Notes under the pieces: model-generated
The model's input: only the letters and a program-made list of their open reading frames with translations
What the model was told of the DNA's origin: nothing
Databases searched by the model: none
Source: an uncultured Planctomycetia bacterium
Lineage (GTDB): Bacteria; Omnitrophota; Gorgyraeia; Tantalellales; Tantalellaceae
Assembly (NCBI GenBank): GCA_964421015.1
Contig: CAYQUS010000003.1
Coordinates: 41,269-105,268, forward strand
Direction of reading: 5' to 3'
Length of the DNA stretch: 64,000 nucleotides
Made by a program: the position numbers and the translations under genes
In this document: positions 30,390-49,720 of the stretch, piece after piece
Layout of the letters: every line of letters starts with the position of its first letter
How positions within the stretch are numbered: position 1 is the first letter of the stretch

Positions 30390-30418
30390 TTGACTACATA
30401 TTGCCGCTACTGTATAAT
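30390..30418 (+). promoter_or_regulatory. Consensus sigma70-type promoter of the 3043 aa giant gene
   Basis: TTGACT (30390-30395), 17-nt spacer, TATAAT (30413-30418), ~130 nt upstream of ATG 30547. Confidence 0.6.
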
Positions 30419-30546: not shown

Positions 30547-33500
30547 ATGATGTCTTTAAAAATTAAGAACTCATTTTTAGGGAAAGTTTCCGCTATCTTT
30601 CTGATAGCGGCATTTTCTTTTTACAACTGCGACATAAGTTCCGCCGTTACCCAGGCGGAAATAAAGTCGCCGGGTTCCGCGTCCGATAATTCCGTTCTCT
30701 CTGTGGAGGATATCGGAATAGCCATAGACGCGGGCACGATAAGGTCGAAGTTTGCCGGCCAGACCGGCAAGACCATAGTGCACATACAGGACGCCCATTG
30801 TAATTTCGAGGCCCAGAGCAACATAAGCCGCATACTCGAACAGCTTTCCAGGGATTCAGGCATAGCGATGATATCAGTAGAAGGCGCCGAAGGAACGGTT
30901 GATACGGCCTGGTTCAGAGCCTTCCCGGACGCCGAGATCCGCAGGGAAGTAGCCACCTATTTCATGAAGAAGGGCGAAATAACCGGAGCGGAATTTTTCT
31001 CCATAAACTCGGATTATAACGGCACTATTTTCGGGGCGGAAACAAGAGACTACTACGTGCAGAACCTTAGAGCCTTCCTCGATATGTACCCCTACAAAGA
31101 AGCTATACTTTCTTATTTCAACGATCTTAAGTCCGCCGGCGAAAAACTGAAGTCTATAATATATCCTCCGAAACTCAGGGAGCTCGACAGGAACGCGCAC
31201 AATTTCGAAAGCAAGGAGATGGACCTGAGCAAGTACGCGGAATATCTGGTAAAGGCTTCCGCGGAGAACGGGGTAGATACCGCCGGTTACGCCAACTTTA
31301 AAAAACTCACAGACACTCTCGAGTATGAGAAGAAAATAGATTTCGACGTAGTGGACGGTGAAAGGGCCAGGTACATAGACGCTCTTTCCAAGATGCTTTC
31401 CAAAGAGGAAATGGCCGACCTTGTGGCAGAGAGCATAAAGTTCAAGAAGGGTTACATAAAAGCCGTTGATTTTTATTCGCATCTCAGGGACCTGGCGAAG
31501 GCCCACGATATACCGATGATGCAGGAATACCCCAACCTTTTTTATTACTACATTTACTCCAAGATATACGACGGCATAGACATAGAAGGCCTTTTCAGGG
31601 AAATAGATCTTGTGGAAAGAGCCGTGAAAAAGAAGCTTATAAAGGATGAAACGCAGGACAAGCTCGACAAACTTTCAGAGAAAGTCGAAAAACTCATAGG
31701 GCTTGTGAATATCGAACTTACCAACGACGATTACGACCGTTTCAGGAAAATAGCCGACGCTTTTACACTTGACGACGTAGTTTCTTTTTATGACGGTATG
31801 GCCGGCAGATACAACCTTGATTTCTCCCTGGGGGAAGTTCCTTCGGTTGTCAGAGAGAACATGCCCAAGATGGTGGATTTTTACGAGATAGCGATAAAAC
31901 GCGATATGGCCCTTGTTGAGAACACCCTGGCCCAGATGGAAAGGGAAGGCAAGGACAGATCGGTCCTTATAGCCGGAGGTTTCCATACAAGAGGTATGGC
32001 CGATATACTGGAAAAGAAAGGTGTTTCTTATGTGGTTGTCACCCCAAAAATAACTAAAGATGTCGAGTCTCCCTATATACAGGTACTTACCAACCAGAGA
32101 ACTTCAATTGAGGACATAATTACCGAAAGCGCCATGCCCGGGACAAAGAACGAGAATGTCTCTGCCGGCGAGAACGCTGGTGGGCTTTTGTCTCCTCTTC
32201 TCAGGTTCGGTTGGGGAATTACCATGCTTCTGGACGACAACCAGAAGGCTTTGCTGCAGTCGGTTTCGGATGAACTTGGCAAGGTGGACGGCGGGGCCAA
32301 GTTCGAGGACGCCGTAAAGGAAAGTTTTAGAACTACTGTAAGAATGATGGCCGACAGGTGGCTTTCTACCGTAAAAAGCAATATGGTGGAACGCCTTGGG
32401 ATGGATGAAGATAAAGCTGAGGAGGAATTTCTTAAATTCGCGAATGACGACAGCCTTTGGGCCATGCTTCAGTCTGTCTATGTCGGCAAATACGACGATT
32501 ACTTCAGGTCGGTCAACAGAGTAGCTTCCCCAGCGGTGAAGGCGCAGATAGTGCTGGCGTTTAGTGAATATCGCAACGGGTATCTGGCTCGCGGTGAAAT
32601 AGGTGAAGGGGATGGCGCCGCCCAGAGCCCCGGACGCCAGAAAGCGGGCGACAGGGTGCTTAAAGACAACGATGAAATAAAGAATTTTGACCAGATAATA
32701 AGGTTCAGTTTTGATTCAGGAAAAGCCAATGAGGAAGCTTTCAGGGTTTCCGGGGTTTTCGGCCCGGAAATAGACGGAAAGTTCAGGTTTTTCGCACACG
32801 ATGGCTTAAACTCGTCGCTTGAGACCGCCGGGCTTCCGGCAAACGTTCACCCGGGCCGTGGCGGCGAGGCTAAGATGCACCAGGCCTATCAGGCCCACAT
32901 GGACAAATATGTTTTCGATAATCTTACCGACGCCCAGAGAACCACTCTGGCAAGACATGAACTTGCCCATCTTGTAATAGCCAACGCCGAAGATATAGCC
33001 TACAAAGAAAGAAAGGATTACAAGACCAGGGGAGAGGTAGAGCTAACCATAGAGGGCAGGCTCGGAAGGCAGGCTTTTAACACCTGGAAAATGTGGGAGA
33101 AATTCGTGGAGAGAGAATTCTCCGGGAATTTCCAGAGGTACAAGGACCGCGCTCTTTCTGAACAGGAAATGGAAACTCTGGCGGAGCTCCAGGAAAGGTT
33201 CGTCAACAGCCTTCCAAATTCCGACGTAACCGGTGTAGTGGCCAGGATGAACGCGATATCCGAGGCGAAAAAAGCGTCGGATCAGAAGGCTCTTAGAGAA
33301 ACGCTCCGTAAACACGCCAAAGAAATGTCGACTTCCGTAGCTGACGAAAAGGGTCCGGACGTAGTCATAGTGGTGTCTTCTACCGACGACCTGGCGGATT
33401 TCTGGCAGAAAAGGCTTACCTGGGATGGTTTACATGGTTCAGGCGCGGTAGTGAAAAAAAGTTCCGTGGTGTTGTCAGTTTCCGAGACCAACTGGACAAA

Positions 33501-36500
33501 AGGCGCCGGTAACGGACTTGGCACGCTTAATGGTTTTATAAGGGCCGCCAGAAAAGCCCAGGATCTCAATATCATAGAGACAGATGTTCCTTCTGGCAAA
33601 GTTAACCTTACTCAGGACGACATAAACAAGCTCGCGGACGCTTTCAGCGCCTATCTTAAGAGGGGCAACAAGAGCGCTTTTATGTTCCATACCGCCGGAA
33701 AAGGCACACGTACGGCGCCTCTTCCCGGAGTGGAAGGCAATTCCAAACCCAATATCAAGCTTCCCGAGATGGTTGATGTAGGCGGGGTTATGCAGCCCAT
33801 GACCATACTCGAGGGTGTCATGAAGGCTATAAGCAGATATGCGGATACAAGAAAAGGCCGTCTGGGTGTTTTCTGGGGAGACCAGGTCATTATAAACCAG
33901 AACCCTGTAGGCGACGAGGCGCCCAAACATCACGTCGAGATATTCGGGCAGAACGTTCCATTGGATGAAAGCATACAGTCTTACGGTGTTCTTATAGCGG
34001 GTGACCAGCCGGGCGACGCCATGCAGAGGGAAAAGCTCCCGATGAAAGAGGTCGAGGACCTGCTCAAGGCCAGCAACAAAGGACCCGACGAGGTATATAA
34101 GAGCATAGGTTCGTTCACTATATCAAACGATTTTCTCATGGCGCTACTAAAAGACAATGTTGCGGGTTCCGAGAAGAGCCTTGAGTCCACGAAAGGCAGT
34201 CTTGATACCGACCCCGACTGGTGGCAGCCGCTTACATCGTCGCTTGACGAGTACAAGGCCATGATGGCGAAAAAGAAAAAGTCTCCGGCGGTCGCTGAAG
34301 CTCAGTGGAACAAGATGAACGCCCTTTGGAACAATTTTAACAGCCAGGGGAAGGGGAAAATAGGCGTTACCGACGTGGGTAAGGATTCGCTCTGGTGGGA
34401 TTACGGCCAGAACAAATACTACCTTAGGAACATGCAGATACTCACAGAAAAGGACACAGTCGACGGAGTTTCCTCGAGAGAATTTTTCGGTATAGACAGC
34501 TGGATAAAAGGTTCCACGCTTGGTGACGCTAACGACGTTTCCGATACAGAAAAGAGGTTCACATCCCAGGCGCTGGCGGAAGGCAGAGCTGTCGGGGCAA
34601 AAGACGGCAAGAAATATCTGGATATACAGTCTTCTGTCGTACAGAACTCTACGATAAAGAGCGGGCGCCTTAAGAACTGCGTTGTAATAGACAGCTACCT
34701 GGAGAATGTTGACGCCGAGAACGCCGTGATAATAGGAAGCACTGTGTTCAAGCTTAACGCTAAAGGCGCTCTTGTATACAATGTGGTGAATGACGAAGTT
34801 CCGGCGCTTACTGAGGGCCAGATACTGACCAACGTTTTCCATCCCACGGTCGGTCGCATACAGATGCAGATGAGGACAGATGTTTCCCGTGACGGCAGTG
34901 TCGACTGGGAACAGGAGGTTTTTGTTTACGACAATCTTTATACTTACGCCGACGTCGCAAAACTCATGGCAGAGAGCGGTATTACAATGGACGTCATAAA
35001 GATTTTAAGAGATAACGCGGCCAGGGCGCTTATTGAGAGCCGCGAAGCCAGTAATACAAGGAGCGCTAACGAACTTAAGAATGATCTGCTTACCAGCAGG
35101 AACAAAAAAGCGGGGACGCTAAAGACCAAAGCTCTTGAACTTAAATCAAAGGCCGAAGGCGTTCTCAGGGAAGACCCGAAAGGCAATGTAAGGTCCATAC
35201 TGAGGGAAGCGGGGCTTAACGAACTTTGGGCCGCCAGGGCGGAGCTCGACGAACCCGAGGCCAGAAAGATAGTAGCTTACAGCATTATGGTCACCGAGGG
35301 CAGGACCTCGATGGACGTAGCCGAATACATGGAGATGTTCGCTATGGTGCCTAACCCGGCAAACATCCGCGCGGCCGAAGAGGAACTGGTCGCCGTGAGA
35401 AAACTGGTGGAGCTCTCAAAGGTGGACCGCCGCAAGTACTACGCCCAGCAGGAACCTCTGGCTTTCGGTACAAGCGGCCTTAGGGACACAGTTGAAAGAC
35501 TTACCGATATGGAAGTTTACATAAACGCCCGTGGCTTTATCAGATATCTTATCGAGCAGGGAGAGATAGTTGACGGTGACTCTGTTGCCATAGCGGGAGA
35601 CTTGAGGCCGAGCACACCAAGGCTTATGACGGCTGTGGCCAGGGCTATAGAGGACGAGGGTCTTGCTAACGGATATTCGCTTGGAGTGGATCTTAGGGGA
35701 TTCCTGCCGTCGCCCAGCGTGGCTCTTGACGGTTTTATCGGCAAGAAACCCAGCGTTATGGTGACCGGCAGCCACATACCGGCCGACAGGAACGGAATAA
35801 AGTTCAACAAGAAGAGCGGAGAAGTTCTTAAACAGGACGAGAAAGGCATACTTTCTAAAGTCAAGGAGGCAAGGGCCGAAGAGACCGCGCTTGACTGGCA
35901 GGTAACATTGTTCGATCAGGCCGGGAAGTTTAAGGACGCCCCGGTTTATGCGCTTCAATCCGGGCAGGATGAAAGTATAGAGGTTTTCGTCAATAGGTAT
36001 ACCAGCGTTTTTGGTACGGAAGCTCTTAAGGACAAAAAAGTGTTCATATACCAGCATTCAGCTGTCGGAAGGGACATAATTTCCGACATATACAGAAAGC
36101 TGGGAGCTACTGTGATAACTCCCGGAGTAGATGAATTTGGCGGGTACATAGAAGGTAAAGAAGAAGACAACATAATACAGGTTACGTATACCGACGAAAA
36201 AACCGGTAAGGAAGTAACAGAGAATGTGAATCTTCGCAGCGAGGAGTTTGTCCCGGTGGATACGGAGAAAGTATCCAATAAGACAAAGGCCATACTCAAA
36301 GCTGTTGCCGCGAAGTACGCTCCGGACGTTATAATATCCACTGACGGAGATTCTGACAGGCCGCTTTTTGTGGACGAAGAAGGTAACTTCCTTGTTGGTG
36401 ACAAACTTGGTCTTCTTGCTGTTAAATTCATGGTGGAAAATGCTCAGAAACCCGCCATGGTGGCTTTACCGGAAAGCACTAATGAGGGAGTAGTAGCCGA

Positions 36501-39500
36501 GCTTGAAAGTATGGGGATAAAGGTGATCAAGACCAAGATAGGTTCGCCGCATGTCATAAAGGCCATGAACGACTGGACACGTCCCGGCAGGGGGCATGAG
36601 AACGACATAGTATGCGGTTGGGAAGCCAACGGAGGTTTTCTCCTGGGCAGCGACATAAAGTTGTTTGACAAAGATTTAAGGTCTCTTCCGACACGCGACG
36701 CGGTGTTCCCGACACTTTCCGGTATACTTTTGTCCGGGATAAAAGGGGTGTCAGTGAAGGAGCTTATAGAGAAGGAGACCCCGGCCGTGTATAACGGCGC
36801 CGGTGTTTTTGACGATTTCCGTGATAAGGACGGCAAGAAACTTACGGGTAACGCCGGGTTCGGGCTTATGAAGGAAACCATGGCGAAGTTCTCTCCCAAA
36901 CTCGAGGATCAGACGATCGTAAGGGTTAATTTTGATAAGAACACTGTTATTCGGAGAGTACGGGACGAAGAGGCAGGAGAAGAAATAGCCGACAAGTATT
37001 TCTTTGAGACAGTGGAACAGAATATAGACACTCTTAGTCCGGCGGATCTTGCTGAAATAACAAGGGTCAAGGACCTTTTTGGTAAAAACATCCTTACTAA
37101 GGAAAGAGGGTTCGAGCCTATAGCGTCCATAAGTGTTCTTGACGGTATCAAGATATTTTTCAGTAACGGCGAAATATCGCATTTCAGGCCTTCCGGGAAC
37201 GCTCCTGAGTTCAGAAATTACACGACAGCGGCGACACAGGAAAGAGCCGACGCGATGCTGGCCGTAGGACTGAAGGAGTTGGTGCCCTCTATGGTCACAG
37301 AGACATTAAACTCGCCTTCGGGAAGCACCGAGTTGCCGATATGGTCGCCCGGAAGACAGGCCGCGACGGCGACGCCGGCCTCTCCTGAAGTACAGGAAGT
37401 GGCCGATCTTTTGAGGCAGGGCTACCCGGCCATGATAAAGCCGCACAAGGAAGCCAAGGTATGGGGTGTTAATGGCATAGGAGAATATTGGTACGGCGCC
37501 GAAGCGGGAGACAAGACTTCAGTTGTTTCCGTGCGCGACGCCAATGGTAAAACGGTCGAAGCTCCGCTCAATGAGGTTTTAAGCTACGCTCCGGATGTTT
37601 TGGGCAAGGACGCGCTTGATAATTTCGGACAGATGCTGCCGCTTGTAAAGATACTTACGCCCCAGGGCAGGTTGTCGGCCCAGTTCCACGATGCCAAGAA
37701 CGAGCTATGGATAGTTACCGGGATAGATCCCAAGGTCCAGAACCCCTCTATAATACTCGGGTTCAGCAAGGCTTCTGTGGACAGGTTCGGCAGCGCGGTC
37801 AATTCTGAATATAAGAAAGCTCTGGAAAATTACGGCGAGAAGCTTAACGCTCTTATAGACGCCGCTGAAGATATTGGTATCACGCAGGCTTTCCAGGGGG
37901 ACATACTCGAAAAGGCTAAGGATTACCCCGCCATGGGAAGTTATGTGGCGGAACTCGAGTCGGCGAAAGGTGAGCTGGAATGGTTCTATAACTACAGGCC
38001 TGTTAAGGTTGGAGAGGTTATACCTGTTCCGGCCGGCACTTTACACGCTCTTGGAACAGGTGTGGAGGTAGTAGAACCGCAGATAGCCGGTCTTACGCAG
38101 TCTCTGGAAGACGGAGCTACTTATCCGGTGAGGTACTATTTCCCGGGGCATGAAAGGCCCGGCGCTCAGAAACAGCTGGATATAGACAGGGTAGGAGAGA
38201 TGATACCCGCTGTGGCGGTAGAGACCAGCCCGGAAATTATTTCCGAACAGCCGAACGGTGAAAAGGTCGAGAGGCTTCCGGGAAATTTCGAGTCCAAGGG
38301 GCTTGAGGTTAACAGGATAACGGTAAGAAAAGACGCCGCCTCGACCGGGACCTTCAGGATAGGCAGCATGGAGAGCATACACAATCTGGTAGTGGTCAAG
38401 GGTGAAGCTTCGGTGCTTGTGGCCGGTCAGAGGATCAAAATACCCGCCGCCAGGGCCGGAGAGCCAATGATGATGATACCGCCGACGGCGGGACAGTACA
38501 CCATAGTAGCCGATGCCGACGGTGACAGCGAGATCATTCTTACGCTGACCCCGAAAGCCGAGAAGTGGAATCTTGAGACTCCTGTTGAGAAGGGTTCCGG
38601 AGTGAGCATAAACGGCGAGATGGAGTACGGATATGAGGTGACACCCAGATTCCTGGAGTTTGAGACAATGGTCGATGTCAGGGACGAGGTGAACATACAT
38701 GCCGGGCAGAAGGCTGAAAGTTCTCCGATCATAGCCGGAAGAGCCCATAAAATAAAGGTTCTGGACGGAACGGTAGTAGTGACGCGTTCTACTGGCGAGG
38801 AAGTTGTGGTGGCCGCGGGAGAAGAGTTCCTTGTTGATGAAAACTATTCCAACGTAAGCCTTCTTGATCCGGGCCGTTATGAGATAGTCAATAGAGCCGA
38901 TCTTCCCGCGAAAGTTGAGGTTTCTTACAGCCTCACACAGGAAGAAAAAGTGGCATACGAGACCATCTCTACGCTTAAAAAACATATACCTGTCATAAAA
39001 GGCAAGAAGATAAGGGCGCATGTTCCAAACGAGATCTTCCCGAGCGGCGGTAAAACAGTGGTAGGGTCACGCCTTTGGACGCAGGAGATAATGCAGAATC
39101 TTCTTGGCCCCGACATAATTCTCGCCGGATACGATTCCGCGCTTGGTTTCAGCAGGCTCAAGACCAGCAGCGAGGACGATGTAGTGGAGATCCTTATAGC
39201 CGACAACAAGAAACTGGAAGCCGAGAAGGAAGTTAAGGGGTCGGAAGAGTTCCTCAAGAGCGTAAGGGTCCTGCCGATACCGGAGAACGCCCTTAGCCAG
39301 AAAGGCGGATGGGATTTCTGCCTCGAGGTGGTGGGTTGGTCCATGATACTTGGCGCCGTGGGTCCGGAACAGATACGCGATAAGGCCGATCTTACAAGCC
39401 CTGCCGCGGATATGCATAAGTTCCTGACGAAAGTCCTCAAGCGCCAGGTGGAAAGGGAACACCTTTTCCTCATGCTTTCTTTCAACGAAGCCAACACGTA

Positions 39501-39678
39501 TCTCAGCGGTCTTTCTGAGGACGAAAGGACAGCCATACAGGAGAAGATAGGCGATGTCAGCGATGTCGTGACATGGATGAAGAACCTTGTTAAGAACATA
39601 TTGTTCCAGATGCCGATAAGGCCGTTTGACCCTGCGGACACGCTCCGTCAGAGGCTCAAAGTAATGTGGTCGGCATAA
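30547..39678 (+). CDS. Giant 3043 aa exported protein. Signal peptide, Tiki/TraB-like N-domain paralogous to previous gene, HExxH motif, then fused sugar-1-phosphate nucleotidyltransferase (fucose/mannose-1-P guanylyltransferase-like with left-handed beta-helix) + phosphoglucomutase/phosphomannomutase + type-I phosphomannose isomerase (cupin), ~330 aa C-terminal unknown region
   Basis: RBS aagggga + ATG 30547. Consensus promoter TTGACT-N17-TATAAT at 30390-30418. 'TIVHIQDAH' (30772-30798) and 'GGFHTRG' (~31975-31995) parallel the previous gene. 'HELAH' at ~32950-32975. 'DVVIVVSS', 'FMFHTAGKGTRTAPL' (33680-33725), LbH 'RLKNCVVIDSYLENVDAENAVIIGS' (34660-34800). 'FGTSGLRD' (35464), 'TGSHIPADRNGIKF' (35761), 'DGDSDRPL' (36343) mark a phosphohexomutase. 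'QFHDAKNELWIVT' (37681) and 'PVPAGTLHALGTGVEVVEPQ' (38041) mark PMI type I. Confidence 0.8.
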   Translation: MMSLKIKNSFLGKVSAIFLIAAFSFYNCDISSAVTQAEIKSPGSASDNSVLSVEDIGIAIDAGTIRSKFAGQTGKTIVHIQDAHCNFEAQSNISRILEQLSRDSGIAMISVEGAEGTVDTAWFRAFPDAEIRREVATYFMKKGEITGAEFFSINSDYNGTIFGAETRDYYVQNLRAFLDMYPYKEAILSYFNDLKSAGEKLKSIIYPPKLRELDRNAHNFESKEMDLSKYAEYLVKASAENGVDTAGYANFKKLTDTLEYEKKIDFDVVDGERARYIDALSKMLSKEEMADLVAESIKFKKGYIKAVDFYSHLRDLAKAHDIPMMQEYPNLFYYYIYSKIYDGIDIEGLFREIDLVERAVKKKLIKDETQDKLDKLSEKVEKLIGLVNIELTNDDYDRFRKIADAFTLDDVVSFYDGMAGRYNLDFSLGEVPSVVRENMPKMVDFYEIAIKRDMALVENTLAQMEREGKDRSVLIAGGFHTRGMADILEKKGVSYVVVTPKITKDVESPYIQVLTNQRTSIEDIITESAMPGTKNENVSAGENAGGLLSPLLRFGWGITMLLDDNQKALLQSVSDELGKVDGGAKFEDAVKESFRTTVRMMADRWLSTVKSNMVERLGMDEDKAEEEFLKFANDDSLWAMLQSVYVGKYDDYFRSVNRVASPAVKAQIVLAFSEYRNGYLARGEIGEGDGAAQSPGRQKAGDRVLKDNDEIKNFDQIIRFSFDSGKANEEAFRVSGVFGPEIDGKFRFFAHDGLNSSLETAGLPANVHPGRGGEAKMHQAYQAHMDKYVFDNLTDAQRTTLARHELAHLVIANAEDIAYKERKDYKTRGEVELTIEGRLGRQAFNTWKMWEKFVEREFSGNFQRYKDRALSEQEMETLAELQERFVNSLPNSDVTGVVARMNAISEAKKASDQKALRETLRKHAKEMSTSVADEKGPDVVIVVSSTDDLADFWQKRLTWDGLHGSGAVVKKSSVVLSVSETNWTKGAGNGLGTLNGFIRAARKAQDLNIIETDVPSGKVNLTQDDINKLADAFSAYLKRGNKSAFMFHTAGKGTRTAPLPGVEGNSKPNIKLPEMVDVGGVMQPMTILEGVMKAISRYADTRKGRLGVFWGDQVIINQNPVGDEAPKHHVEIFGQNVPLDESIQSYGVLIAGDQPGDAMQREKLPMKEVEDLLKASNKGPDEVYKSIGSFTISNDFLMALLKDNVAGSEKSLESTKGSLDTDPDWWQPLTSSLDEYKAMMAKKKKSPAVAEAQWNKMNALWNNFNSQGKGKIGVTDVGKDSLWWDYGQNKYYLRNMQILTEKDTVDGVSSREFFGIDSWIKGSTLGDANDVSDTEKRFTSQALAEGRAVGAKDGKKYLDIQSSVVQNSTIKSGRLKNCVVIDSYLENVDAENAVIIGSTVFKLNAKGALVYNVVNDEVPALTEGQILTNVFHPTVGRIQMQMRTDVSRDGSVDWEQEVFVYDNLYTYADVAKLMAESGITMDVIKILRDNAARALIESREASNTRSANELKNDLLTSRNKKAGTLKTKALELKSKAEGVLREDPKGNVRSILREAGLNELWAARAELDEPEARKIVAYSIMVTEGRTSMDVAEYMEMFAMVPNPANIRAAEEELVAVRKLVELSKVDRRKYYAQQEPLAFGTSGLRDTVERLTDMEVYINARGFIRYLIEQGEIVDGDSVAIAGDLRPSTPRLMTAVARAIEDEGLANGYSLGVDLRGFLPSPSVALDGFIGKKPSVMVTGSHIPADRNGIKFNKKSGEVLKQDEKGILSKVKEARAEETALDWQVTLFDQAGKFKDAPVYALQSGQDESIEVFVNRYTSVFGTEALKDKKVFIYQHSAVGRDIISDIYRKLGATVITPGVDEFGGYIEGKEEDNIIQVTYTDEKTGKEVTENVNLRSEEFVPVDTEKVSNKTKAILKAVAAKYAPDVIISTDGDSDRPLFVDEEGNFLVGDKLGLLAVKFMVENAQKPAMVALPESTNEGVVAELESMGIKVIKTKIGSPHVIKAMNDWTRPGRGHENDIVCGWEANGGFLLGSDIKLFDKDLRSLPTRDAVFPTLSGILLSGIKGVSVKELIEKETPAVYNGAGVFDDFRDKDGKKLTGNAGFGLMKETMAKFSPKLEDQTIVRVNFDKNTVIRRVRDEEAGEEIADKYFFETVEQNIDTLSPADLAEITRVKDLFGKNILTKERGFEPIASISVLDGIKIFFSNGEISHFRPSGNAPEFRNYTTAATQERADAMLAVGLKELVPSMVTETLNSPSGSTELPIWSPGRQAATATPASPEVQEVADLLRQGYPAMIKPHKEAKVWGVNGIGEYWYGAEAGDKTSVVSVRDANGKTVEAPLNEVLSYAPDVLGKDALDNFGQMLPLVKILTPQGRLSAQFHDAKNELWIVTGIDPKVQNPSIILGFSKASVDRFGSAVNSEYKKALENYGEKLNALIDAAEDIGITQAFQGDILEKAKDYPAMGSYVAELESAKGELEWFYNYRPVKVGEVIPVPAGTLHALGTGVEVVEPQIAGLTQSLEDGATYPVRYYFPGHERPGAQKQLDIDRVGEMIPAVAVETSPEIISEQPNGEKVERLPGNFESKGLEVNRITVRKDAASTGTFRIGSMESIHNLVVVKGEASVLVAGQRIKIPAARAGEPMMMIPPTAGQYTIVADADGDSEIILTLTPKAEKWNLETPVEKGSGVSINGEMEYGYEVTPRFLEFETMVDVRDEVNIHAGQKAESSPIIAGRAHKIKVLDGTVVVTRSTGEEVVVAAGEEFLVDENYSNVSLLDPGRYEIVNRADLPAKVEVSYSLTQEEKVAYETISTLKKHIPVIKGKKIRAHVPNEIFPSGGKTVVGSRLWTQEIMQNLLGPDIILAGYDSALGFSRLKTSSEDDVVEILIADNKKLEAEKEVKGSEEFLKSVRVLPIPENALSQKGGWDFCLEVVGWSMILGAVGPEQIRDKADLTSPAADMHKFLTKVLKRQVEREHLFLMLSFNEANTYLSGLSEDERTAIQEKIGDVSDVVTWMKNLVKNILFQMPIRPFDPADTLRQRLKVMWSA

Positions 39679-39687
39679 GGATATAAA

Positions 39688-39730
39688 ACACATTAGTGCC
39701 AGGCACCTATGGTGCCTGGCACTAATGTGT
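39688..39730. repeat. Palindrome copy 3, identical to copy 1, 10 nt after the ORF3 stop
   Basis: acacattagtgccaggcacctatggtgcctggcactaatgtgt followed by aaaaaagttag. Confidence 0.9.
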
Positions 39731-39844
39731 AAAAAAGTTAGTTGGTTCCGGTCCCGTAAAAAGGTCCGGACATACAGAGAGAGCGTTAAGCCAAACCACC
39801 TCCCCCTCGGCAAGGCAAGCTCTCTCTGTTTTTTTTGATAAGAG

Positions 39845-39957: not shown

Positions 39958-40040
39958 GGTCAATTATTGCCTGGCGTTATTGTCTTTCACCCGGCACAAA
40001 ATGGTTGGAAAAATCGGGGGGTTGTCGTACAATTAGCGGG

Positions 40041-41699
40041 ATGGAAGCTGAAAAAAATATTAAAAAAGCCGATTTTGGCGTTCTTGCCGGTATAGAGGAG
40101 ATGTTAAGCGCTCCGGACCTGGGTATAGGGCCTGATGTTGTAATAGTGGTCAGTTCCTGCGAGGACGGCGCGTCTTTCTGGCAAAAGAGGCTCACCGGGG
40201 CGGACGGAGTGCATGGTTCGGGAGGCATAGTAAAGCCTTCCGCCGTAGTCCTTTCCGTGAGCGAGTCCAACTGGCATGGGTCCGCCGGCAACGCTCTTGG
40301 GACGATAAACGCCTTTTATGAAGCCGGTCGTATGGCCATGGAGCTCGGCCTTGTGCGGCCCTCAGGCGACGACATAGACCGGATCTTCAGTATTTTCTCG
40401 AATTTTTTAAAGGATAAAAGCGCTTTCATGTTCCATACCGCAGGCAAAGGAACAAGGTTGTCACCTCTTACGGCTGCGGAACATAATTCCAAGTCCAGAA
40501 TAAAGCTTCCTGGCATGGTACACACAAGAGAAGGGCAGGAGCCCATAACAGTGCTTGAGGCCGCCATCAGGGCCGCGGGAATATGCGCGCCCACAAGAGA
40601 AGGCCGCCTTTCGGTTTTCTGGGGAGACCAGATACTCCTCAACGAGCGCAATGTGAGGTCGGACAATACACACCATATAGAAATATTCGCTCAGCCTACG
40701 GAACTCGACGAAAGTATTAGGTCTTACGGGGTCATAATACCCTCTGGCGCTGGAGAGTGCAGACTTCGCGAAAAACTGCGCCCGGCTCTGATAAAGAAAT
40801 TATTCCCTGACGCGGCAGGAAATATATACAGGAGCATAGGATCATTCAGCATCACGCTTGAGGCCTTTGGAGCTTTCGCCGCGTCCGAGAAGAAAGCCGC
40901 TATTATGAGAAGCGGAGAGCTTAATACCGACAGCGGCTGGTGGCAGGCCCTTACTTCGGAGATGGAAGAGTATGTGGATCTACTTTCCGACAAGGGGCTT
41001 TCCCGGGCTAAGGCCGAGAAAAGATGGAAAAAGACCAGGAAAGTCAGAGATCAGCTCGTATCTGCCGGTAAAAACGTTTCGCCCAGAAAAGAGTTGATAG
41101 GATTCGTAGATACCGGGGCAGGTTCTCTCTGGATAGACTGCGGCCGATCTTCCAGTCTTTTTGAAAATATGCTTCTTTTGACCAAAAACACGCCCGAGGC
41201 CGTAGCGGCCAGGAAATTTTTCGGCCTTGACCGGGAATTTCAGGTTTCGTCGGATGCGCGCGGATTAATTTCGGAGAATTCGGCGGTAATAGCTTCCAAG
41301 GTAGGACGAGGCCGTCTCAAGAACTGCGTGGTGGTGGCCAGCGACATAGCGGAAGCGGAAGCCGAGGATTCGGTGATAATAGGGAGCGTTGTAACAAGGC
41401 TTAATGCCGGTTCCGCGCTGTGTTACAATGTTGTTTCCTCCCGGGAAAAACTGGGCAAAGGTGATGTGGCAGTTAATGTTTTCCATCCCGACAGGGGGCG
41501 GATAGTAATGAAGACCCACGTAACAAGGGACGGACAGGAGGATTGGGCCAAAAAGGTCAGGATCGGGGAGAACAGTTTTTCTTACCCGGAACTATCCGAT
41601 CTTGTAGGGGGAGTTTCCGAGGAAGATATAAAAAAAGCCAGGATGTCGGCCGTTAAGGCCGTTAAAAAGGAAAGGAAGAACAATGCAGAACACTCTTAA
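40041..41699 (+). CDS. Sugar-1-phosphate nucleotidyltransferase-like protein (fucose/mannose-1-P guanylyltransferase family). Stand-alone paralog of the nucleotidyltransferase segment of the 3043 aa giant protein
   Basis: Aligns residue-by-residue with ORF3 ('PDVVIVVSSCEDGASFWQKRL', 'AFMFHTAGKGTRLSPLT', 'RLSVFWGDQ', 'RLKNCVVVASD'). ATG 40041 (MEAEKNIKK) preferred over the ORF-track TTG 40005 (no RBS). Stop TAA 41697-41699 overlaps the next gene. Confidence 0.65.
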   Translation: MEAEKNIKKADFGVLAGIEEMLSAPDLGIGPDVVIVVSSCEDGASFWQKRLTGADGVHGSGGIVKPSAVVLSVSESNWHGSAGNALGTINAFYEAGRMAMELGLVRPSGDDIDRIFSIFSNFLKDKSAFMFHTAGKGTRLSPLTAAEHNSKSRIKLPGMVHTREGQEPITVLEAAIRAAGICAPTREGRLSVFWGDQILLNERNVRSDNTHHIEIFAQPTELDESIRSYGVIIPSGAGECRLREKLRPALIKKLFPDAAGNIYRSIGSFSITLEAFGAFAASEKKAAIMRSGELNTDSGWWQALTSEMEEYVDLLSDKGLSRAKAEKRWKKTRKVRDQLVSAGKNVSPRKELIGFVDTGAGSLWIDCGRSSSLFENMLLLTKNTPEAVAARKFFGLDREFQVSSDARGLISENSAVIASKVGRGRLKNCVVVASDIAEAEAEDSVIIGSVVTRLNAGSALCYNVVSSREKLGKGDVAVNVFHPDRGRIVMKTHVTRDGQEDWAKKVRIGENSFSYPELSDLVGGVSEEDIKKARMSAVKAVKKERKNNAEHS

Positions 41700-44603: not shown

Positions 44604-44651
44604 AATAGGGCTAACTATCATACATTTGAAAAGCGTAAAAGAAGGTAGTTG

Positions 44652-45560
44652 ATGGCCGGTAATAATTTTTTGAAGAAGCTCAATCAGCAGAAGATGTCCT
44701 ATCTTTTTATAGCGGTTCCATTTACGCTTTTTTTCGTATTCCAGGTGGCTCCGGTCGCGATATCTTTTCTGTGGTCCTTCACTGAGTACAATGTCATACA
44801 ACCACCCAAATTCATAGGTCTCAGCAATTACAGGCAGCTTCTTTTCAGCGATCCTCTTTTTTGGAAGGCTCTCAAGAATACGGCGATATATGTGGCGGGT
44901 GTTGTGCCTCTGGGGGTTTCTCTTTCCCTTCTTCTTGCAGTGGCCATAGACCAGAAGATCAAGTTCAAGAACTTTTTTAAATCGGTGTTCTTTCTGCCCA
45001 CAGTCACGGCCATAGTGGCTGTTTCGGTCATATGGAAATGGCTTTATGCGGGGGAGAAGTACGGTCTTTTGAATTTTTTTCTGATAAAGCTCGGGTTTGA
45101 ACCTTTGGACTGGCTGACAAGCCCGGAATGGATACTGCCCGCCATAATGATAATGTCCATATGGGCCGGGCTTGGGTACAGCATGATACTGTTTCTTGCC
45201 GGTCTGCAGACTATTCCACACTCGATGTACGAGGCGGCCGAGATAGACGGAGCCGGGTTCTGGCACAGGTTTGGTCACATAACGCTGCCGCTTCTAAGGC
45301 CCACTATAGTTTTCGTTTCCATAATGAGCTTTATCTCCAGTTTTCAGGTTTTTGAACAGGTGTACATAATGACGGGAGGACAGGGCGGGGTAGGTGGGGT
45401 GCTCAATTCCGCGCTCACGATCGTTTCATATCTTTACGACAAAGGTTTTGTGAAATTTCAGATGGGCTACGCTTCGGCTATCGCTTATGTCATCTTCGCG
45501 GTGGTTTTTGCCGTCACGGTGATGAACAAACGTTTTATGAGAGCTAACTTTGACTACTGA
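44652..45560 (+). CDS. ABC sugar transporter permease (MalF/UgpA-type, binding-protein-dependent inner-membrane component)
   Basis: EAA-like motif 'EAAEIDGAGFWHRFGHITLPLLRPT' with 6 predicted TM helices. RBS gaagg. The ORF track begins at TTG 44649 but the adjacent ATG 44652 is preferred. Promoter TTGACA-N17-TAAAAT at 44575-44603. Confidence 0.8.
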   Translation: MAGNNFLKKLNQQKMSYLFIAVPFTLFFVFQVAPVAISFLWSFTEYNVIQPPKFIGLSNYRQLLFSDPLFWKALKNTAIYVAGVVPLGVSLSLLLAVAIDQKIKFKNFFKSVFFLPTVTAIVAVSVIWKWLYAGEKYGLLNFFLIKLGFEPLDWLTSPEWILPAIMIMSIWAGLGYSMILFLAGLQTIPHSMYEAAEIDGAGFWHRFGHITLPLLRPTIVFVSIMSFISSFQVFEQVYIMTGGQGGVGGVLNSALTIVSYLYDKGFVKFQMGYASAIAYVIFAVVFAVTVMNKRFMRANFDY

Positions 45561-45573
45561 TTGATGGAGAGTT

Positions 45574-46422
45574 ATGCTGCCTAATGCCATAGAACACAAA
45601 GAGACCTGGGGAGTAAAAGCGATGATATACGCTTTTCTTATAGCCGGAGCCGTTACCATGGCTCTGCCCTATGTCTGGATGTTCGTAACTTCCATAAAAC
45701 CGCTCGATGAGATACAGGCTTACCCTCCAAGTTTTCTGGTAAAGAACCCGACCTTGGAGCCGTATAAGGACCTTTTCAAAATGATCCCAATGGGAAGGTA
45801 TATACTGAATAGCCTCTTTGTGGCCGGGGCTATAACGCTTTTCAATGTGTTCGCGACATCGCTTGCCGGGTACGCTTTCGCCAAACACAATTTCTGGGGC
45901 AGGGACAATCTGTTCCTGCTTCTCATAGGGTCTCTTATGGTGCCATGGCAGGTCAACGTGATACCAGGTTTTATCATCGCCAAACATCTGGGATGGCTGA
46001 ACAGTTACCTGGGCCTTATAATACCTCCTATGGCGTGCTGCGCTTTCGGTATTTTCCTGAGCCGGCAGTACATATACAGCATACCCAACGACCTTATAGA
46101 CGCGGCCCGGATAGACGGCTGCGGGGAGTTCACTATATACCTCAGGGTGGTCCTTCCCCTGATTAAGCCGGTAATAGCCACCATAGCCATATTCACTTTT
46201 CTTCAGCAGTGGAACAATTTCGTCTGGCCGCTTGTCATAATACACGCGGGCGAGATGAGGACCCTGCCTCTTGCCCTGGCGGTCCTTACGGGGCAGTTCG
46301 GAGCGAATTTCGGTATGGTCATGGCCGGAGCGGTCGTGGCTACGCTGCCTATACTGGCGGTGTACCTGGCTTTCCAGAAATATGTGATAAGAGGTATTGC
46401 AATGATCGGGATAAAAGGGTAA
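45574..46422 (+). CDS. ABC sugar transporter permease (MalG/UgpE-type)
   Basis: 'DAARIDGCGEFTIYLRVVLPLIKPV' EAA motif, multiple TM helices. Starts 13 nt after the previous stop with RBS gatggagag. Confidence 0.8.
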   Translation: MLPNAIEHKETWGVKAMIYAFLIAGAVTMALPYVWMFVTSIKPLDEIQAYPPSFLVKNPTLEPYKDLFKMIPMGRYILNSLFVAGAITLFNVFATSLAGYAFAKHNFWGRDNLFLLLIGSLMVPWQVNVIPGFIIAKHLGWLNSYLGLIIPPMACCAFGIFLSRQYIYSIPNDLIDAARIDGCGEFTIYLRVVLPLIKPVIATIAIFTFLQQWNNFVWPLVIIHAGEMRTLPLALAVLTGQFGANFGMVMAGAVVATLPILAVYLAFQKYVIRGIAMIGIKG

Positions 46423-46462
46423 AATTCGCTAACGCTCGTCTAACGGAACGGAAGGAAGGATA

Positions 46463-48142
46463 ATGTCGAAAAAGATGCGAAGGAACACCGGTGTTTTTCT
46501 CGGGTTTTTGTTTATGTGTTTTTTAGCGGTTTCCGGTTGCGGCGGAGCCAAGGGGACAGATAGCGCCAAAGACGCTAAAACGGTTCCCGCGCAGGTTTCA
46601 CAGCCGGCAAGGCAAACCGCCAAAGAAGCCGACATAAAGACCGTTCAGGTAGCCGCGGATGATACTTTGGCCTATATAAAGGCCGTTGCGGCCGAGGCTT
46701 CGAGTTTCGACCAGACCCCGGACTGGGCCCCTGATCCCAATCCGATGAACGCTTACGACGGAGACATGCTTACCAGGTGGTCAAGCGATTACCACGAAGG
46801 GCCCCAGTGGATATATTTCGATCTTGGGAAAGAAAGCGTAGTGTCGAACGTCATCATAAGATGGGAAAGGGCTTACGCTACCGACTACAAGATATTGGCC
46901 TCCAATGACGGCGAATCGTGGAAAGAGGTCTATCACGAGACTGCCGGCAACGGCGGCTCGGACGATATAAGTTTCGCTCCTGTAAAATGCCGTTACATCA
47001 AGATGCTGGGGCTTGGCCGTGTCAACGAGGACTGGGGTATTTCCGTATGGGAAACCGAGATATACGGGCCCGGTTCCCACAATCCCCATGCCGTAAAAAC
47101 AAAAGAAGAATATCTGGGGGCGGCCGACGATACCAACAAAAGAAAAGAAGCCGATGAGGCTCTCGAGGCTATCGCCCAGGAGCCCGTGGCTTTGTCGGTC
47201 AACCCTTTCCAGAAGGGCCTGGTTTATACTTCCTGGATGGGGGAGGAGTTCCTCTCTCCCGCCTCGGACATAACCCTCGTGTATCTTAAGAACGCCGGGT
47301 ACGACTCCATAGCCATAATGGTGCCGGCATATCAGGACAGCATAGAATCAAAGGTTGTTTTTACCAACGATACCTCCGACGGAGACACTCCCACCGACGA
47401 GGCTTTGAAACACGTTATAGCTTCCTGCAGGAAGATCGGGCTTAGAGTGATGGTGAAACCCCACGTGGACCCCAGGACCAACGAGGCCAGGATAAACATA
47501 ATGCCCTCCGAAGAATGGTTCGACAGTTTTGAGGCGTTCACTCTGAGGTACGCTCGCCTTGCGGCCGAAACCGGAGCGGAAATGTTCTGCATAGGCACAG
47601 AGCTTGAAGCCACCACTTTCGAGGCCTGGACGCACAGGTGGGAAAGGCTGATAGACAAGGTAAGAGAGGTTTATAAAGGAACTCTTACTTACGCCGCCAA
47701 CTGGACAGAGTACAAAGAGGTTCCTTTCTGGAACAAACTGGACTTTGTAGGTATAGACGCGTATTTTCCCCTTTCGGGAAGTGAAGATCCATCCCAGGAA
47801 GATCTTATTTCGGCTTGGGAAAGGATAGCCGATGAGATAGGAGCCTGGAGAGAGTCCATGAAACTTACCGACAAAGGAGTGGTGCTCACGGAGATAGGAT
47901 ATCCGTCCGCCAGGGGAGCGGCTATACAGCCCTGGGCGGCTATTTCCGCGACGGAAGATCAGAAAGCCCAGGCGGAGAGCCTTAACGCTGTCTTTACGGT
48001 GTTAAGCAAGCGGCCATGGTTCCAGGGGTACTATGTGTGGCAGTATTTTCCTCAGGAAAGATGGAGCCCGCTGGGGTTCACGGTAAAAGGGAAACAGGCA
48101 GAAGGAATAATGACAAAATGGCTTAAAGGTACAGAACAATAA
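46463..48142 (+). CDS. Lipoprotein glycoside hydrolase: F5/8 type C (discoidin) carbohydrate-binding domain + clan GH-A TIM-barrel glycosidase (GH113/GH5-like, possible beta-mannanase)
   Basis: Lipobox 'LAVSGC'. Discoidin motifs 'DGDMLTRWSS..WIYFDLG..YKILASNDGESW' (46700-47080). Catalytic domain paralogous to 49721..50806 ('MVKPHVDP', 'FCIGTELE', 'VLTEIGYPSA'). Confidence 0.6.
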   Translation: MSKKMRRNTGVFLGFLFMCFLAVSGCGGAKGTDSAKDAKTVPAQVSQPARQTAKEADIKTVQVAADDTLAYIKAVAAEASSFDQTPDWAPDPNPMNAYDGDMLTRWSSDYHEGPQWIYFDLGKESVVSNVIIRWERAYATDYKILASNDGESWKEVYHETAGNGGSDDISFAPVKCRYIKMLGLGRVNEDWGISVWETEIYGPGSHNPHAVKTKEEYLGAADDTNKRKEADEALEAIAQEPVALSVNPFQKGLVYTSWMGEEFLSPASDITLVYLKNAGYDSIAIMVPAYQDSIESKVVFTNDTSDGDTPTDEALKHVIASCRKIGLRVMVKPHVDPRTNEARINIMPSEEWFDSFEAFTLRYARLAAETGAEMFCIGTELEATTFEAWTHRWERLIDKVREVYKGTLTYAANWTEYKEVPFWNKLDFVGIDAYFPLSGSEDPSQEDLISAWERIADEIGAWRESMKLTDKGVVLTEIGYPSARGAAIQPWAAISATEDQKAQAESLNAVFTVLSKRPWFQGYYVWQYFPQERWSPLGFTVKGKQAEGIMTKWLKGTEQ

Positions 48143-48162
48143 TCCAAAAGGAGGGACAAAAA

Positions 48163-48747
48163 ATGAAAAAGAGTATGTTGGTTGCGGTGATACTGTGTTT
48201 CTTTGCCGCGGGACTCTCGTTCGCGGGAGAGGATGTTCTTTTTAGTTTCGAAGGCGGCACGGAAGGATGGGAGATCCCGGATTGGGCCTATGAAAAACCG
48301 GACCATGTCCAGGAAGCCATAAACATTTCGGAAGAGTTCGCTTCTAACGGGGCCAACAGCCTTGAGGTAGAGGCTGTTTTTCCGGGCGGCAGATGGGCCG
48401 GAGCCATAGTTGAGACCATGCAGTATTTCGACTGGTCGGAATACAACAAGCTGGCCTGCGATATCTATCTTCCTGCTGACGCGCCTCTCGGGCTCAAGGC
48501 CAAGTTCATACTTACTGTGGGCGACAACTGGCAGTGGGTTGAGATGTCACGTTCCTACGATCTTAAGCCGGGCGAGTGGGTGACCGTAGAGGCGGACATA
48601 GCTCCGGGCAGTATAGACTGGCGCAGAGTCGAGGTAGGAGAGGCTTTCAGGCAGGATATCAGAAAGATAGACATAAGGGTTGAGTCTAACAATAAACCCG
48701 CTTATTCCGGACCTTTCTACATAGACAACGTAAGGGTCATAAAGTAA
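48163..48747 (+). CDS. Secreted beta-sandwich protein, putative carbohydrate-binding (CBM-like) module
   Basis: Signal peptide 'MKKSMLVAVILCFFAAGLSFA', RBS aaaggaggg. Paralog of 48776..49513 ('FPGG.W...VE..QY.D.S.Y......D.YLPADAP.GL.AK.ILTVGDNW..VEM.RS..L.PGEWVT'). Confidence 0.6.
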   Translation: MKKSMLVAVILCFFAAGLSFAGEDVLFSFEGGTEGWEIPDWAYEKPDHVQEAINISEEFASNGANSLEVEAVFPGGRWAGAIVETMQYFDWSEYNKLACDIYLPADAPLGLKAKFILTVGDNWQWVEMSRSYDLKPGEWVTVEADIAPGSIDWRRVEVGEAFRQDIRKIDIRVESNNKPAYSGPFYIDNVRVIK

Positions 48748-48775
48748 AAAATCAACGTATCAGGGAGAGGTCTTT

Positions 48776-49513
48776 ATGGAAAAGACGAAAAAGTGTGTTT
48801 TATGCGGGGCCGGCGGGCTTTTTTTGGCCGCGATAGTGTTTCTTTCGGGATGCGCTCAGGAAGACGCGACAAAACCCATGGCCATGAAGCAGGCCGAGAC
48901 CGGAGTGAAGTCGGACTCGCTTCAGCTAGCCGATAAAACCCAGACGGCCAAGGAAGAGGTTCCCGTGCCTTCAACGGCGCCTATAACCGAAGAGAGGTCC
49001 TACTACGATTTCGAAAGAGGCGACCTTGCCGGATGGGAAGTTCCGCAATGGGCCGAGGGTAAGAACGACTACGTGGCTAAAAAAGCGGAGATCTCCCAGG
49101 ATTTCGCTTCCAAGGGGACGAGCAGTATGAAGGTTACGGCGGATTTCCCCGGAGGGTACTGGACAGCGGCCCTTGTGGAAATACAGCAGTATCTTGATCT
49201 CAGCAAGTACAGGGTCATAAGCGTTGACGTTTACCTGCCGGCAGACGCGCCTGTGGGTCTCAACGCCAAGCTCATACTGACAGTCGGCGACAACTGGCGT
49301 TTTGTGGAAATGAACAGAAGTTTCCCGCTTATGCCGGGCGAATGGGTCACCATAACGGCCAGTCTTGAGCCCGGAAGTTACGACTGGAAAAGAGTGGTTC
49401 CGGACGAGAAGTTCGCGGAAGACGTAAGGAAGATAGCCGTAAGGATAGAGTCGAACAACAAGCCCAAGTACACGGGCGTAGTATACATAGACAACGTGAG
49501 AGTCGGAAGGTAA
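48776..49513 (+). CDS. Lipoprotein paralog of the preceding secreted beta-sandwich (CBM-like) protein, with a longer Ser/Thr-rich N-terminal tether
   Basis: Lipobox 'FLSGC'. ~45% identity to 48163..48747 over the C-terminal 160 aa. RBS gggagagg. Confidence 0.6.
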   Translation: MEKTKKCVLCGAGGLFLAAIVFLSGCAQEDATKPMAMKQAETGVKSDSLQLADKTQTAKEEVPVPSTAPITEERSYYDFERGDLAGWEVPQWAEGKNDYVAKKAEISQDFASKGTSSMKVTADFPGGYWTAALVEIQQYLDLSKYRVISVDVYLPADAPVGLNAKLILTVGDNWRFVEMNRSFPLMPGEWVTITASLEPGSYDWKRVVPDEKFAEDVRKIAVRIESNNKPKYTGVVYIDNVRVGR

Positions 49514-49720
49514 AGCGTTCCGGAATATCTTTCCTTCCGCGAGTGAGAGCGGCGCGATATAAGCTGAGTTCACCCGCGGAAGGAAAGAGGGTTTTTATTA
49601 TGCGGTTTTGTCCCGAAATTTCTCCGAATACGAATGAAACACCGCGGGTGAACACCGCGGTTTCAGATAGATGAAATAAAACTTAAAAGAAAACGGCTCG
49701 AGCTGAAAAGGGAGAAGGCT

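Follow-up and report, generated by a model that had tools for sequence, protein, structure and literature searches.

The window analysed here is a 64,000-nucleotide (nt) stretch of contig CAYQUS010000003.1 (assembly GCA_964421015.1, positions 41,269 to 105,268, forward strand) from an uncultured Planctomycetia bacterium that GTDB assigns to the Omnitrophota, a phylum that is known mostly through metagenomes and presumed to be predatory or parasitic. A single open reading frame (ORF) at 30547..39678 (+) encodes a protein of 3043 amino acids (aa), hereafter the giant, and two shorter genes directly downstream, o4 and o5, encode paralogs of its enzyme modules. The giant ORF is a genuine gene; an independently assembled protein (P0001) matches it at 99% identity and equal length, and this full-length copy, together with many full-length homologs, rules out an assembly artefact or a pseudogene.

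The order of parts from the N-terminus is a predicted Sec signal peptide, a family module of ~530 aa, a module with an HExxH motif, a triad of sugar-phosphate enzymes, a beta domain and a C-terminal module (Table 1). Within the triad, a nucleotidyltransferase resembling FKP, the L-fucokinase/GDP-fucose pyrophosphorylase of Bacteroides fragilis, comes first, followed by a phosphomannomutase-type mutase and a type I phosphomannose isomerase (PMI).

The three enzyme modules

The mutase module matches domains I–III of the phosphoglucomutase/phosphomannomutase (PGM/PMM) family in Pfam (PF02878, PF02879 and PF02880) above their gathering cut-offs, with 52.2, 32.2 and 31.6 bits. Domain IV (PF00408) is weak in the giant (E 0.07) and passes in o5 (26.9 bits). 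The functional loops are present: the phosphoserine (S1742), the metal loop (D1933-x-D1935-x-D1937-R1938), the sugar-loop glutamate (E2026) and R2214-x-S2216...R2223. When 57 giant-embedded and 60 stand-alone copies were aligned, the phosphoserine, the sugar-loop Glu and the RxSG...R motif were kept in 100%, and DxDxDR in at least 96%. A Ser-His-Ile-Pro variant of the phosphoserine loop is the signature of the entire mutase subfamily. By these sequence criteria the module is a member of the alpha-D-phosphohexomutase superfamily (PGM/PMM/GlmM). NCBIfam models do not fix its substrate, because no equivalog cut-off is approached; the best is TIGR03990 (archaeal GlmM) with 120.6 bits against 439, and PMM and PGM models give 20–34 bits against 600–800.

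The isomerase module is a divergent type I PMI (ManA class I). It scores 15.2 bits with PF20511 against a gathering score of 22 (relatives score 20–22 bits), and 36.2 bits with TIGR00218 (manA class I; cut-off 116.2, E 3.8e-09) over profile positions 35–352 of 359. Searching the PDB with the single sequence of this region gave no match. A 15-sequence profile, with a best E of 1.7e-11, found the type I PMIs of Bacillus, Salmonella and Candida. The alignment takes in both halves of the active site, and the QxH...E and TLHAL motifs of 1qwr line up with the zinc ligands; Q2379, H2381, E2386 and H2500 are invariant in the 15 sequences. The AlphaFold2 (AF2) model covering the module (mean predicted local distance difference test score, pLDDT, 85.5; Foldseek E ~1e-15) has the type I arrangement of a catalytic cupin, a helical domain and a second cupin.

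Assignment of the nucleotidyltransferase module is based on predicted structure and motif spacing, because sequence searches came up empty. Neither Pfam (E<=10) nor NCBIfam (E<=1) returned anything for this module or for o4, so that PF00483, PF07959 and PF01704 were not recognised, and single-sequence phmmer against the PDB gave no match. The sole PDB match of a 17-sequence profile was a beta-helix repeat protein (a pentapeptide-repeat helix, E 0.006, over the beta-helix region). The AF2 model (pLDDT 72, predicted template-modelling score, pTM, 0.75) consists of an alpha/beta catalytic domain and a beta-helix, and all 26 Foldseek matches in the PDB with E<=0.001 are sugar-nucleotide pyrophosphorylases. 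The top match is the part of FKP that acts as GDP-fucose pyrophosphorylase (9iis; E 2.3e-09, probability 1.00, TM-score 0.42–0.44). Ranks 2–22 are ADP-glucose pyrophosphorylases, after which come a mannose-1-phosphate guanylyltransferase of Thermus (2cu2), GlmU (ranks 24 and 26) and RmlA.

The motifs of the module are AGKGTR at aa 1050–1055 (G1051-K-G-T-R1055), K1067, WGD1112 and E-K1163. R1055, K1067, D1112 and K1163 are invariant in 17 giant-embedded copies (A1) and 93–100% conserved in 118 stand-alone relatives. The spacing matches that of FKP, the best structural match: R to D is 57 residues against 56, and D to K is 51 in both. In FKP, R80, K89, D136 and K187 act on the pyrophosphate, the beta-phosphate, the Mg and alpha-phosphate, and the sugar phosphate, respectively (PMC11982464). 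In both proteins, an alpha/beta domain with a short beta-helix leads through a helical linker to another sugar-phosphate enzyme. However, FKP is only ~13% identical to the giant's module, there is no sequence-level match between them, and the partner is a GHMP kinase in FKP but a phosphohexomutase in the giant.

An earlier note on this DNA had read the same three domains in the same order, and these assignments hold in the Pfam, profile and AF2/Foldseek searches. The six motifs it quoted are found at aa 1051, 1641, 1740, 1933, 2379 and 2495, and the catalytic residues, whose absence it named as the grounds for dismissal, are all conserved (phosphoserine, metal loop, four zinc ligands, and Arg/Lys/Asp/Lys). 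The region it gave, 33350–38170, is the right one, except that the isomerase module runs ~380 nt past the end of it. Its description of the transferase as fucose/mannose-1-phosphate guanylyltransferase-like is borne out for the fold and the catalytic machinery, through the match to FKP, and is not supported for the nucleotide or the sugar.

The Foldseek ranking can also be read in favour of a glucose or glucosamine pathway, in which the mutase would be a PGM or GlmM, the transferase would make ADP- or UDP-glucose or UDP-N-acetylglucosamine for glycogen or the envelope, and the cupin would have another isomerase role. Besides the ADP-glucose pyrophosphorylases and GlmU entries just listed, this is consistent with the top NCBIfam matches of the mutase, which are GlmM models, with the glucose-6-phosphate isomerase (PGI), PFK and UDPGP modules of sibling proteins, and with the AGKGTR loop and beta-helix of the transferase, which resemble those of GlmU. 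Such a pathway is nevertheless improbable, and a GlmM/GlmU route to UDP-N-acetylglucosamine was rejected as the primary reading because the isomerase is a type I PMI and because of the surrounding mannan genes described below.

Relatives, paralogs and the beta-mannan locus

A total of 322 homologs was found, and all of those with a source name are from Candidatus Omnitrophota or closely associated metagenome-assembled genomes (MAGs). Module presence was counted over the 120 homologs listed, all of which have the N-terminal module in common; 28 of them have the nucleotidyltransferase, 59 the mutase and 19 the isomerase. Alternative cargo in other members includes PFK, PGK, class II aldolase, FBPase, two kinds of PGI, UDPGP, canonical PF00483 transferases, CofD/YvcK, epimerases and ROK/HAD domains. 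The giant belongs to a large modular Omnitrophota family with interchangeable sugar-phosphate enzymes.

The triad is not an obligatory unit of this family, because the isomerase is missing from P0002 and P0003. P0002 is the closest relative (69% identity); it aligns with aa 1–2277 and then continues straight to aa 2668–3042, leaving out the isomerase (window 37384–38550). The earlier note implied that the fusion is unique. This is not the case, as P0005 and P0006 carry the same three modules (in P0004 the nucleotidyltransferase match is partial only), there are stand-alone fusions of ~1500 aa such as P0136, and the modular family is very large.

The stand-alone paralogs o4 and o5 both lack a signal peptide. 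A fragment 100% identical to o4 (P0241) is annotated as Candidatus Omnitrophota bacterium. The o5 protein matches Pfam PGM_PMM domains I–IV as well as manA class I, and orthologs of ~945 aa are common in Omnitrophota. No Pfam or NCBIfam model covers the family of o4, whose members are annotated as 'hypothetical' throughout. Proteins of diatoms (Thalassiosira, Chaetoceros, Skeletonema), Ectocarpus, Euglena, Chlamydiae and Lentisphaerae show ~30% identity to o4 over ~90% of its length, and the motifs HTAGKGTRLAPLP, VFWGDQ, DTDPxxWxPLT and WWDYGQ are common to them. The idea that the eukaryotic homologs are the 'missing' GDP-mannose pyrophosphorylase of brown algae was considered and stays speculation, since that activity is already attributed to a characterised bifunctional MPI/MPG (PMC11468063).

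The duplication that separated the giant from the stand-alone copies is old, because embedded mutases have a mean identity of 40%, compared with 58% among stand-alone copies, and the giant's module is 46% identical to o5. The triad of the giant is accordingly an old, faster-evolving paralog of the signal-less o4/o5 pair. Faster evolution is also what might be seen if the embedded modules had given up catalysis and served a surface protein as structural parts or as binders of sugar phosphates or glycans, and at the predicted extracytoplasmic location their substrates would be lacking. This is very improbable: dozens of embedded copies, divergent as they are, retain all of the tested catalytic residues, and such retention would not be expected if catalysis were not under selection.

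Genes o4 and o5 head a beta-mannan utilisation locus (Table 1). The same gene order, headed by a mutase-carrying giant and a three-enzyme set, is found in three other Omnitrophota genomes (L001, L002 and L003), and the state of fusion differs between them. The set consists of three genes in L002 (629, 564 and 399 aa), of two genes in L003 and the present window, and of one gene, for a 1521-aa protein, in L001 (Ca. Tantalella remota). The 399-aa protein of L002 is 48% identical to the giant's isomerase module. A further arrangement is seen in proteins of ~1110 aa, for example from an Anammoxibacter MAG, where an o4-like region is joined to the mutase.

The ~1500-aa fusions of Omnitrophota MAGs (P0136, a 'hypothetical protein' of Ca. 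Tantalella remota) resemble the giant in having the mutase and then the isomerase after an N-terminal region of ~565 aa, and they occupy the equivalent position in the locus. They differ from it in lacking the signal peptide and the N-terminal, HExxH and C-terminal modules, and are orthologous to o4 plus o5. The N-terminal region of the 1521-aa protein and of its relatives of ~1500 aa shows similarity to o4 in its C-terminal half only (~aa 303–568; 4 of 120 matches), and by sequence this region is a divergent nucleotidyltransferase-like domain.

Table 1. Features of the giant gene and its surroundings, in window coordinates
Feature	Coordinates	Strand	Residues and remarks
Upstream neighbour, 4131 aa	17802..30197		same N-terminal module as the giant, 26% identity; glutamate dehydrogenase, PPDK_N and PEP-utiliser mobile domains
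Sigma-70-like promoter	30390..30418	+	TTGACT-17-TATAAT, 11/12 matches; ~130 nt 5' of the start codon; consensus match only
Predicted Sec signal peptide	30547..30645	+	aa 1-33; K5/K7/K13, hydrophobic core VSAIFLIAAFSFY, ending SSA before V
N-terminal family-defining module	30646..32226	+	aa 34-560; invariant IQDxH and GGxH
Middle HExxH module	32614..33336	+	aa 690-930; HELAH at aa 804-808
Sugar-1-phosphate nucleotidyltransferase-like module	33361..34881	+	aa 939-1445; AF2 fold and motifs
Linker, mostly helical, charged	34882..35451	+	aa 1446-1635; composition, and low-confidence helices closing the AF2 model
Alpha-D-phosphohexomutase (PGM/PMM) module	35452..37281	+	aa 1636-2245; Pfam and motifs
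Pro/Ser/Thr-rich linker between mutase and isomerase	37282..37428	+	aa 2246-2294; composition
Type I phosphomannose isomerase module	37429..38547	+	aa 2295-2667; zinc ligands Q2379, H2381, E2386, H2500
Extra all-beta cupin-like domain	38560..38928	+	aa 2672-2794; AF2 model residues 398-520; weak profile matches to TM1112 cupins
C-terminal alpha/beta and helical module	38938..39675	+	aa 2798-3043; AF2 model, conserved tail
Perfect hairpin, 20-bp stem	39688..39730	.	starts 10 nt past the stop codon
Second hairpin and T8 run	~39774-39838	.	3' of the first hairpin
25-bp tandem repeat ACTTTTGTCATCCTGAGCCGAATCC	39848-39942	.	3.8 copies, 97% matches
o4, stand-alone nucleotidyltransferase paralog	40005..41699	+	42% identity to aa 936-1500
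o5, stand-alone mutase-isomerase fusion, 948 aa	41683..44529	+	42% identity to aa 1635-2669
Beta-mannan utilisation genes	44649..53366	+	two ABC permeases, GH113 with F5/8C, CBM27/mannanase-binding (Mann_GBD), second GH113, ROK, solute-binding protein
PMT_2-type (GT39-like) glycosyltransferase, GT2 and YdjC-like genes	54602-57856		PMT_2 and GT2 at 54602..57014

Sugar, direction and location of the predicted pathway

The giant is probably a modular Omnitrophota multi-enzyme protein whose triad, paralogous to o4/o5, interconverts fructose-6-phosphate, mannose-6-phosphate, mannose-1-phosphate and a nucleoside diphosphate (NDP)-mannose on one polypeptide. Interconversion between fructose-6-phosphate and NDP-mannose is the most likely chemistry because the catalytic residues are intact in all three modules, which suggests that each of them is active. 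A single pathway is indicated because the three enzymes co-occur in every fusion state beside mannan-degrading genes, and mannose chemistry is also pointed to because the isomerase fold is that of a type I PMI. Gene context and isomerase type thus make mannose the likely sugar, and the position of the paralogs at the head of the GH113/CBM27 locus, a context outside the earlier note, gives independent support to a mannose-centred chemistry. The transferase may use GTP and mannose-1-phosphate, as suggested by its context: in every fusion state it is either fused to the mutase and the type I PMI or lies beside them, with the mannan locus alongside.

The direction of the pathway is indicated less clearly. 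The mannan locus suggests a catabolic role, and the pyrophosphorylase, together with the PMT_2 and GT2 genes after the locus, which are possible consumers of activated mannose, suggests synthesis of activated mannose. The earlier note had specified GDP and a biosynthetic run from fructose-6-phosphate to the NDP-sugar; neither is sustained, as the transferase family has no Pfam or NCBIfam model and the mannan-degrading context fits catabolism equally. The mutase and isomerase reactions are freely reversible. The three enzymes could form a funnel from mannose-1-phosphate or NDP-mannose through mannose-6-phosphate to fructose-6-phosphate, leading mannose compounds from mannan or prey toward glycolysis and not into an activated sugar. 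In its favour, the stand-alone paralogs head a locus for mannan degradation and import, and pre-processing of sugars for glycolysis has been proposed for such domains by West-Roberts et al. (10.1101/2023.11.21.568195). A pyrophosphorylase would however be superfluous for catabolism, and the downstream PMT_2 and GT2 genes would use activated mannose. Examination of the mannan locus showed no mannoside phosphorylase (GH130) and no obvious mannokinase, and the ROK protein looks like a regulator because of a weak N-terminal helix-turn-helix match. A purely catabolic funnel is on the unlikely side.

Several observations weigh against an active fructose-6-phosphate/NDP-mannose pathway on the giant. 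The activity and specificity of the modules are predictions from sequence and models. The mutase lies far under every NCBIfam equivalog cut-off, and its best match is archaeal GlmM; the isomerase, at 15.2 bits, falls short of the PF20511 gathering score of 22; neither Pfam nor NCBIfam matches the nucleotidyltransferase, whose Foldseek TM-scores are modest (0.42–0.44). The two closest relatives, P0002 and P0003, have no isomerase module, and the greater divergence of giant-embedded mutases could mean relaxed constraint. Finally, nucleoside triphosphates (NTP), pyrophosphate and sugar phosphates are not expected outside the cytoplasm, so that the predicted export and the predicted chemistry sit uneasily together.

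Export is predicted from features of the N-terminal sequence, which is that of a Sec-type signal peptide with no membrane anchor. The highest 13-residue Kyte-Doolittle window (2.15, aa 14–26) is the core of this peptide, and A33, which completes a small-x-Ala site, is invariant across a family whose consensus terminates in ...SNIAFA. None of the 19-residue Kyte-Doolittle windows over all 3043 aa reaches 1.6, and beyond the signal peptide no hydrophobic segment or transmembrane helix was found in the 3043 residues.

In type II PMI/GDP-mannose pyrophosphorylases (AlgA, XanB, ManC/CpsB and the Pyrococcus PMI/GMP), a PF00483 domain and a PF01050 cupin form a cytoplasmic protein of ~480 aa without a mutase. 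The giant resembles the AlgA/ManC type in carrying a predicted pyrophosphorylase and a phosphomannose isomerase, as in the GDP-mannose route, on one chain. In contrast to it, no PF00483 or PF01050 domain is detectable in the giant by Pfam, its isomerase is of type I and its transferase is FKP-like, and the mutase stands between the two, all within a 3043-aa signal-peptide protein. If its modules are active, the giant would hold a complete route from fructose-6-phosphate to NDP-mannose on a single chain, made from building blocks unlike those of AlgA/ManC. A phosphohexomutase joined to a sugar-1-phosphate nucleotidyltransferase is also said to occur in diatoms, as the UGPase/PGM fusion reportedly described by Kroth et al. 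in 2008. The diatom protein differs from the giant in using a canonical PF01704 UDP-glucose pyrophosphorylase, in acting on glucose and in lacking an isomerase.

The earlier note knew of no described trifunctional fusion, and a literature search for a trifunctional PMI-PMM-pyrophosphorylase gave nothing relevant, but PGM/PMM domains in Omnitrophota giants had already been reported (10.1101/2023.11.21.568195; 10.64898/2026.06.07.730766). West-Roberts et al. list PGM/PMM, PGI, FBPase, TPI and aldolase domains in such proteins and comment that the extracellular location predicted for them is odd (10.1101/2023.11.21.568195), and the 'multi-enzyme metabolic cluster' class of a 2026 preprint includes PGM/PMM domains (10.64898/2026.06.07.730766). 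The word 'mannan' is absent from both preprints and 'GH113' from the 2026 one, the only one in which it was looked for; the latter uses 'isomerase' once, for glucose-6-phosphate isomerase (10.64898/2026.06.07.730766). Archaeovorins (10.1101/2023.11.21.568195) and the multi-enzyme metabolic clusters (10.64898/2026.06.07.730766) are from the same phylum, and like the giant have sugar-phosphate enzymes of cytoplasmic type built into very long proteins for which export or membrane attachment is predicted. They are of at least 10,000 aa with many transmembrane helices and SecA-like domains, whereas the giant is of 3 kaa (thousand aa) and has no transmembrane helix. It has no SecA or dockerin match in Pfam, and N- and C-terminal modules of its own define it, which sets it outside the Archaeovorin and Dockerin types. 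Sugar-phosphate enzymes in Omnitrophota giants are thus already known, and this fusion is one example of a modular system that is widespread. Its interest lies mainly in the export paradox, the huge N-terminal family and a functional lead for an enzyme family that reaches eukaryotic algae.

If the modules are active, the export signal on the giant challenges the view of nucleotide-sugar metabolism as strictly cytoplasmic. An extracytoplasmic pathway of this kind would have no obvious source of NTP, and the same paradox has been noted for other Omnitrophota giants (10.1101/2023.11.21.568195; 10.64898/2026.06.07.730766). A bolder proposal, which we consider unlikely as it stands, is that the N-terminal leader (signal peptide and ~530-aa module) of thousands of Omnitrophota proteins carries entire blocks of sugar-phosphate and nucleotide-sugar metabolism of cytoplasmic type out of the cytoplasm, into an enlarged periplasm of the Planctomycetes-Verrucomicrobia-Chlamydiae (PVC) type, to the cell surface or into a prey cell. 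There would then be two mannose routes, a cytoplasmic one of o4/o5 and an exported one of the giant, and NDP-mannose pyrophosphorylase would, as a corollary, be the first function for the FKP-like family of PVC bacteria, diatoms, brown algae and Euglena. The adjacent cytoplasmic and signal-bearing paralogs offer a natural comparison for what the giant format adds. Gene fusion and synteny provide a testable function for this Pfam-less enzyme family of Omnitrophota, Chlamydiae, Lentisphaerae, diatoms, brown algae and Euglena.

Remaining modules and flanking features

The N-terminal module carries the invariant motifs IQDxH (aa 80–84) and GGxH (aa 477–480). Of 1.84 billion representatives of 50%-identity clusters, 9626 were matched by a profile of this module, 6238 with E<=1e-30. 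The module is always located at the protein N-terminus, in carriers of ~520 aa to more than 6000 aa, and with ~9600 sequence clusters it is a handle for cataloguing the modular multi-enzyme proteins of Omnitrophota. The profile found no match in the PDB. Seven of 10 members with the module are matched by PF04187 (ChaN/Tiki), below threshold (best E 0.02), which is a lead only.

The HExxH motif is kept in 41 of 42 homologous middle modules, and H115, E116 and H119 are invariant in A4. Searches found no match of the module's profile in the PDB and no significant Pfam family, with scattered weak Pfam matches to PhageMetallopep, M56 and SprT-like. The module is a putative zincin-like metallopeptidase, as a lead and not a finding. 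Conservation of this motif raises the question of a polyprotein, in which the giant would be made or exported as a precursor and cut at its linkers by its own HExxH module, its N-terminal module or both, the fusion being a delivery format and not a means of channelling. The long inter-module linkers, one of them Pro/Ser/Thr-rich, are in agreement with this, proteolytic processing of Omnitrophota giants has been proposed by West-Roberts et al. (10.1101/2023.11.21.568195), and a polyprotein is compatible with the chemistry of the fructose-6-phosphate/NDP-mannose pathway. However, the HExxH module has no significant match to a peptidase family and the cleavage sites are hypothetical. On the whole the polyprotein is rather doubtful. 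The linker at aa 1446–1635 is conserved in the closest relatives only.

The C-terminal module is confidently modelled by AF2 and is present in 53 of the 120 homologs listed; Pfam, NCBIfam and PDB searches gave no match for it. Its tail is strongly conserved (...MPIxPFD...RRKVMWS(A/V); consensus MPIKPFDxxDQLxQRRKVMWSV), the giant ending in ...LFQMPIRPFDPADTLRQRLKVMWSA (39601–39675), and might be a sorting or docking signal.

The giant gene is apparently its own transcription unit, because there is a strong promoter-like site upstream and hairpins downstream; the two hairpins are likely to form the end of the unit, judging from their sequence. The upstream 4131-aa protein has internal hydrophobic segments at aa 1858–1955. 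Before it lies a partial ORF of more than 5775 aa (window 2–17329) in which hydrophobic segments are numerous and which also has helix-hairpin-helix motifs and a PEP-utilizers_C domain; over the first 3000 aa of this ORF Pfam gave no match. On the other side, between the mannan locus and the PMT_2 gene, a 318-aa ORF at 53435–54391 (-) has no Pfam match. Genes of 303 and 305 aa are found in L001 and L003 in the same orientation and position, past the solute-binding protein gene.

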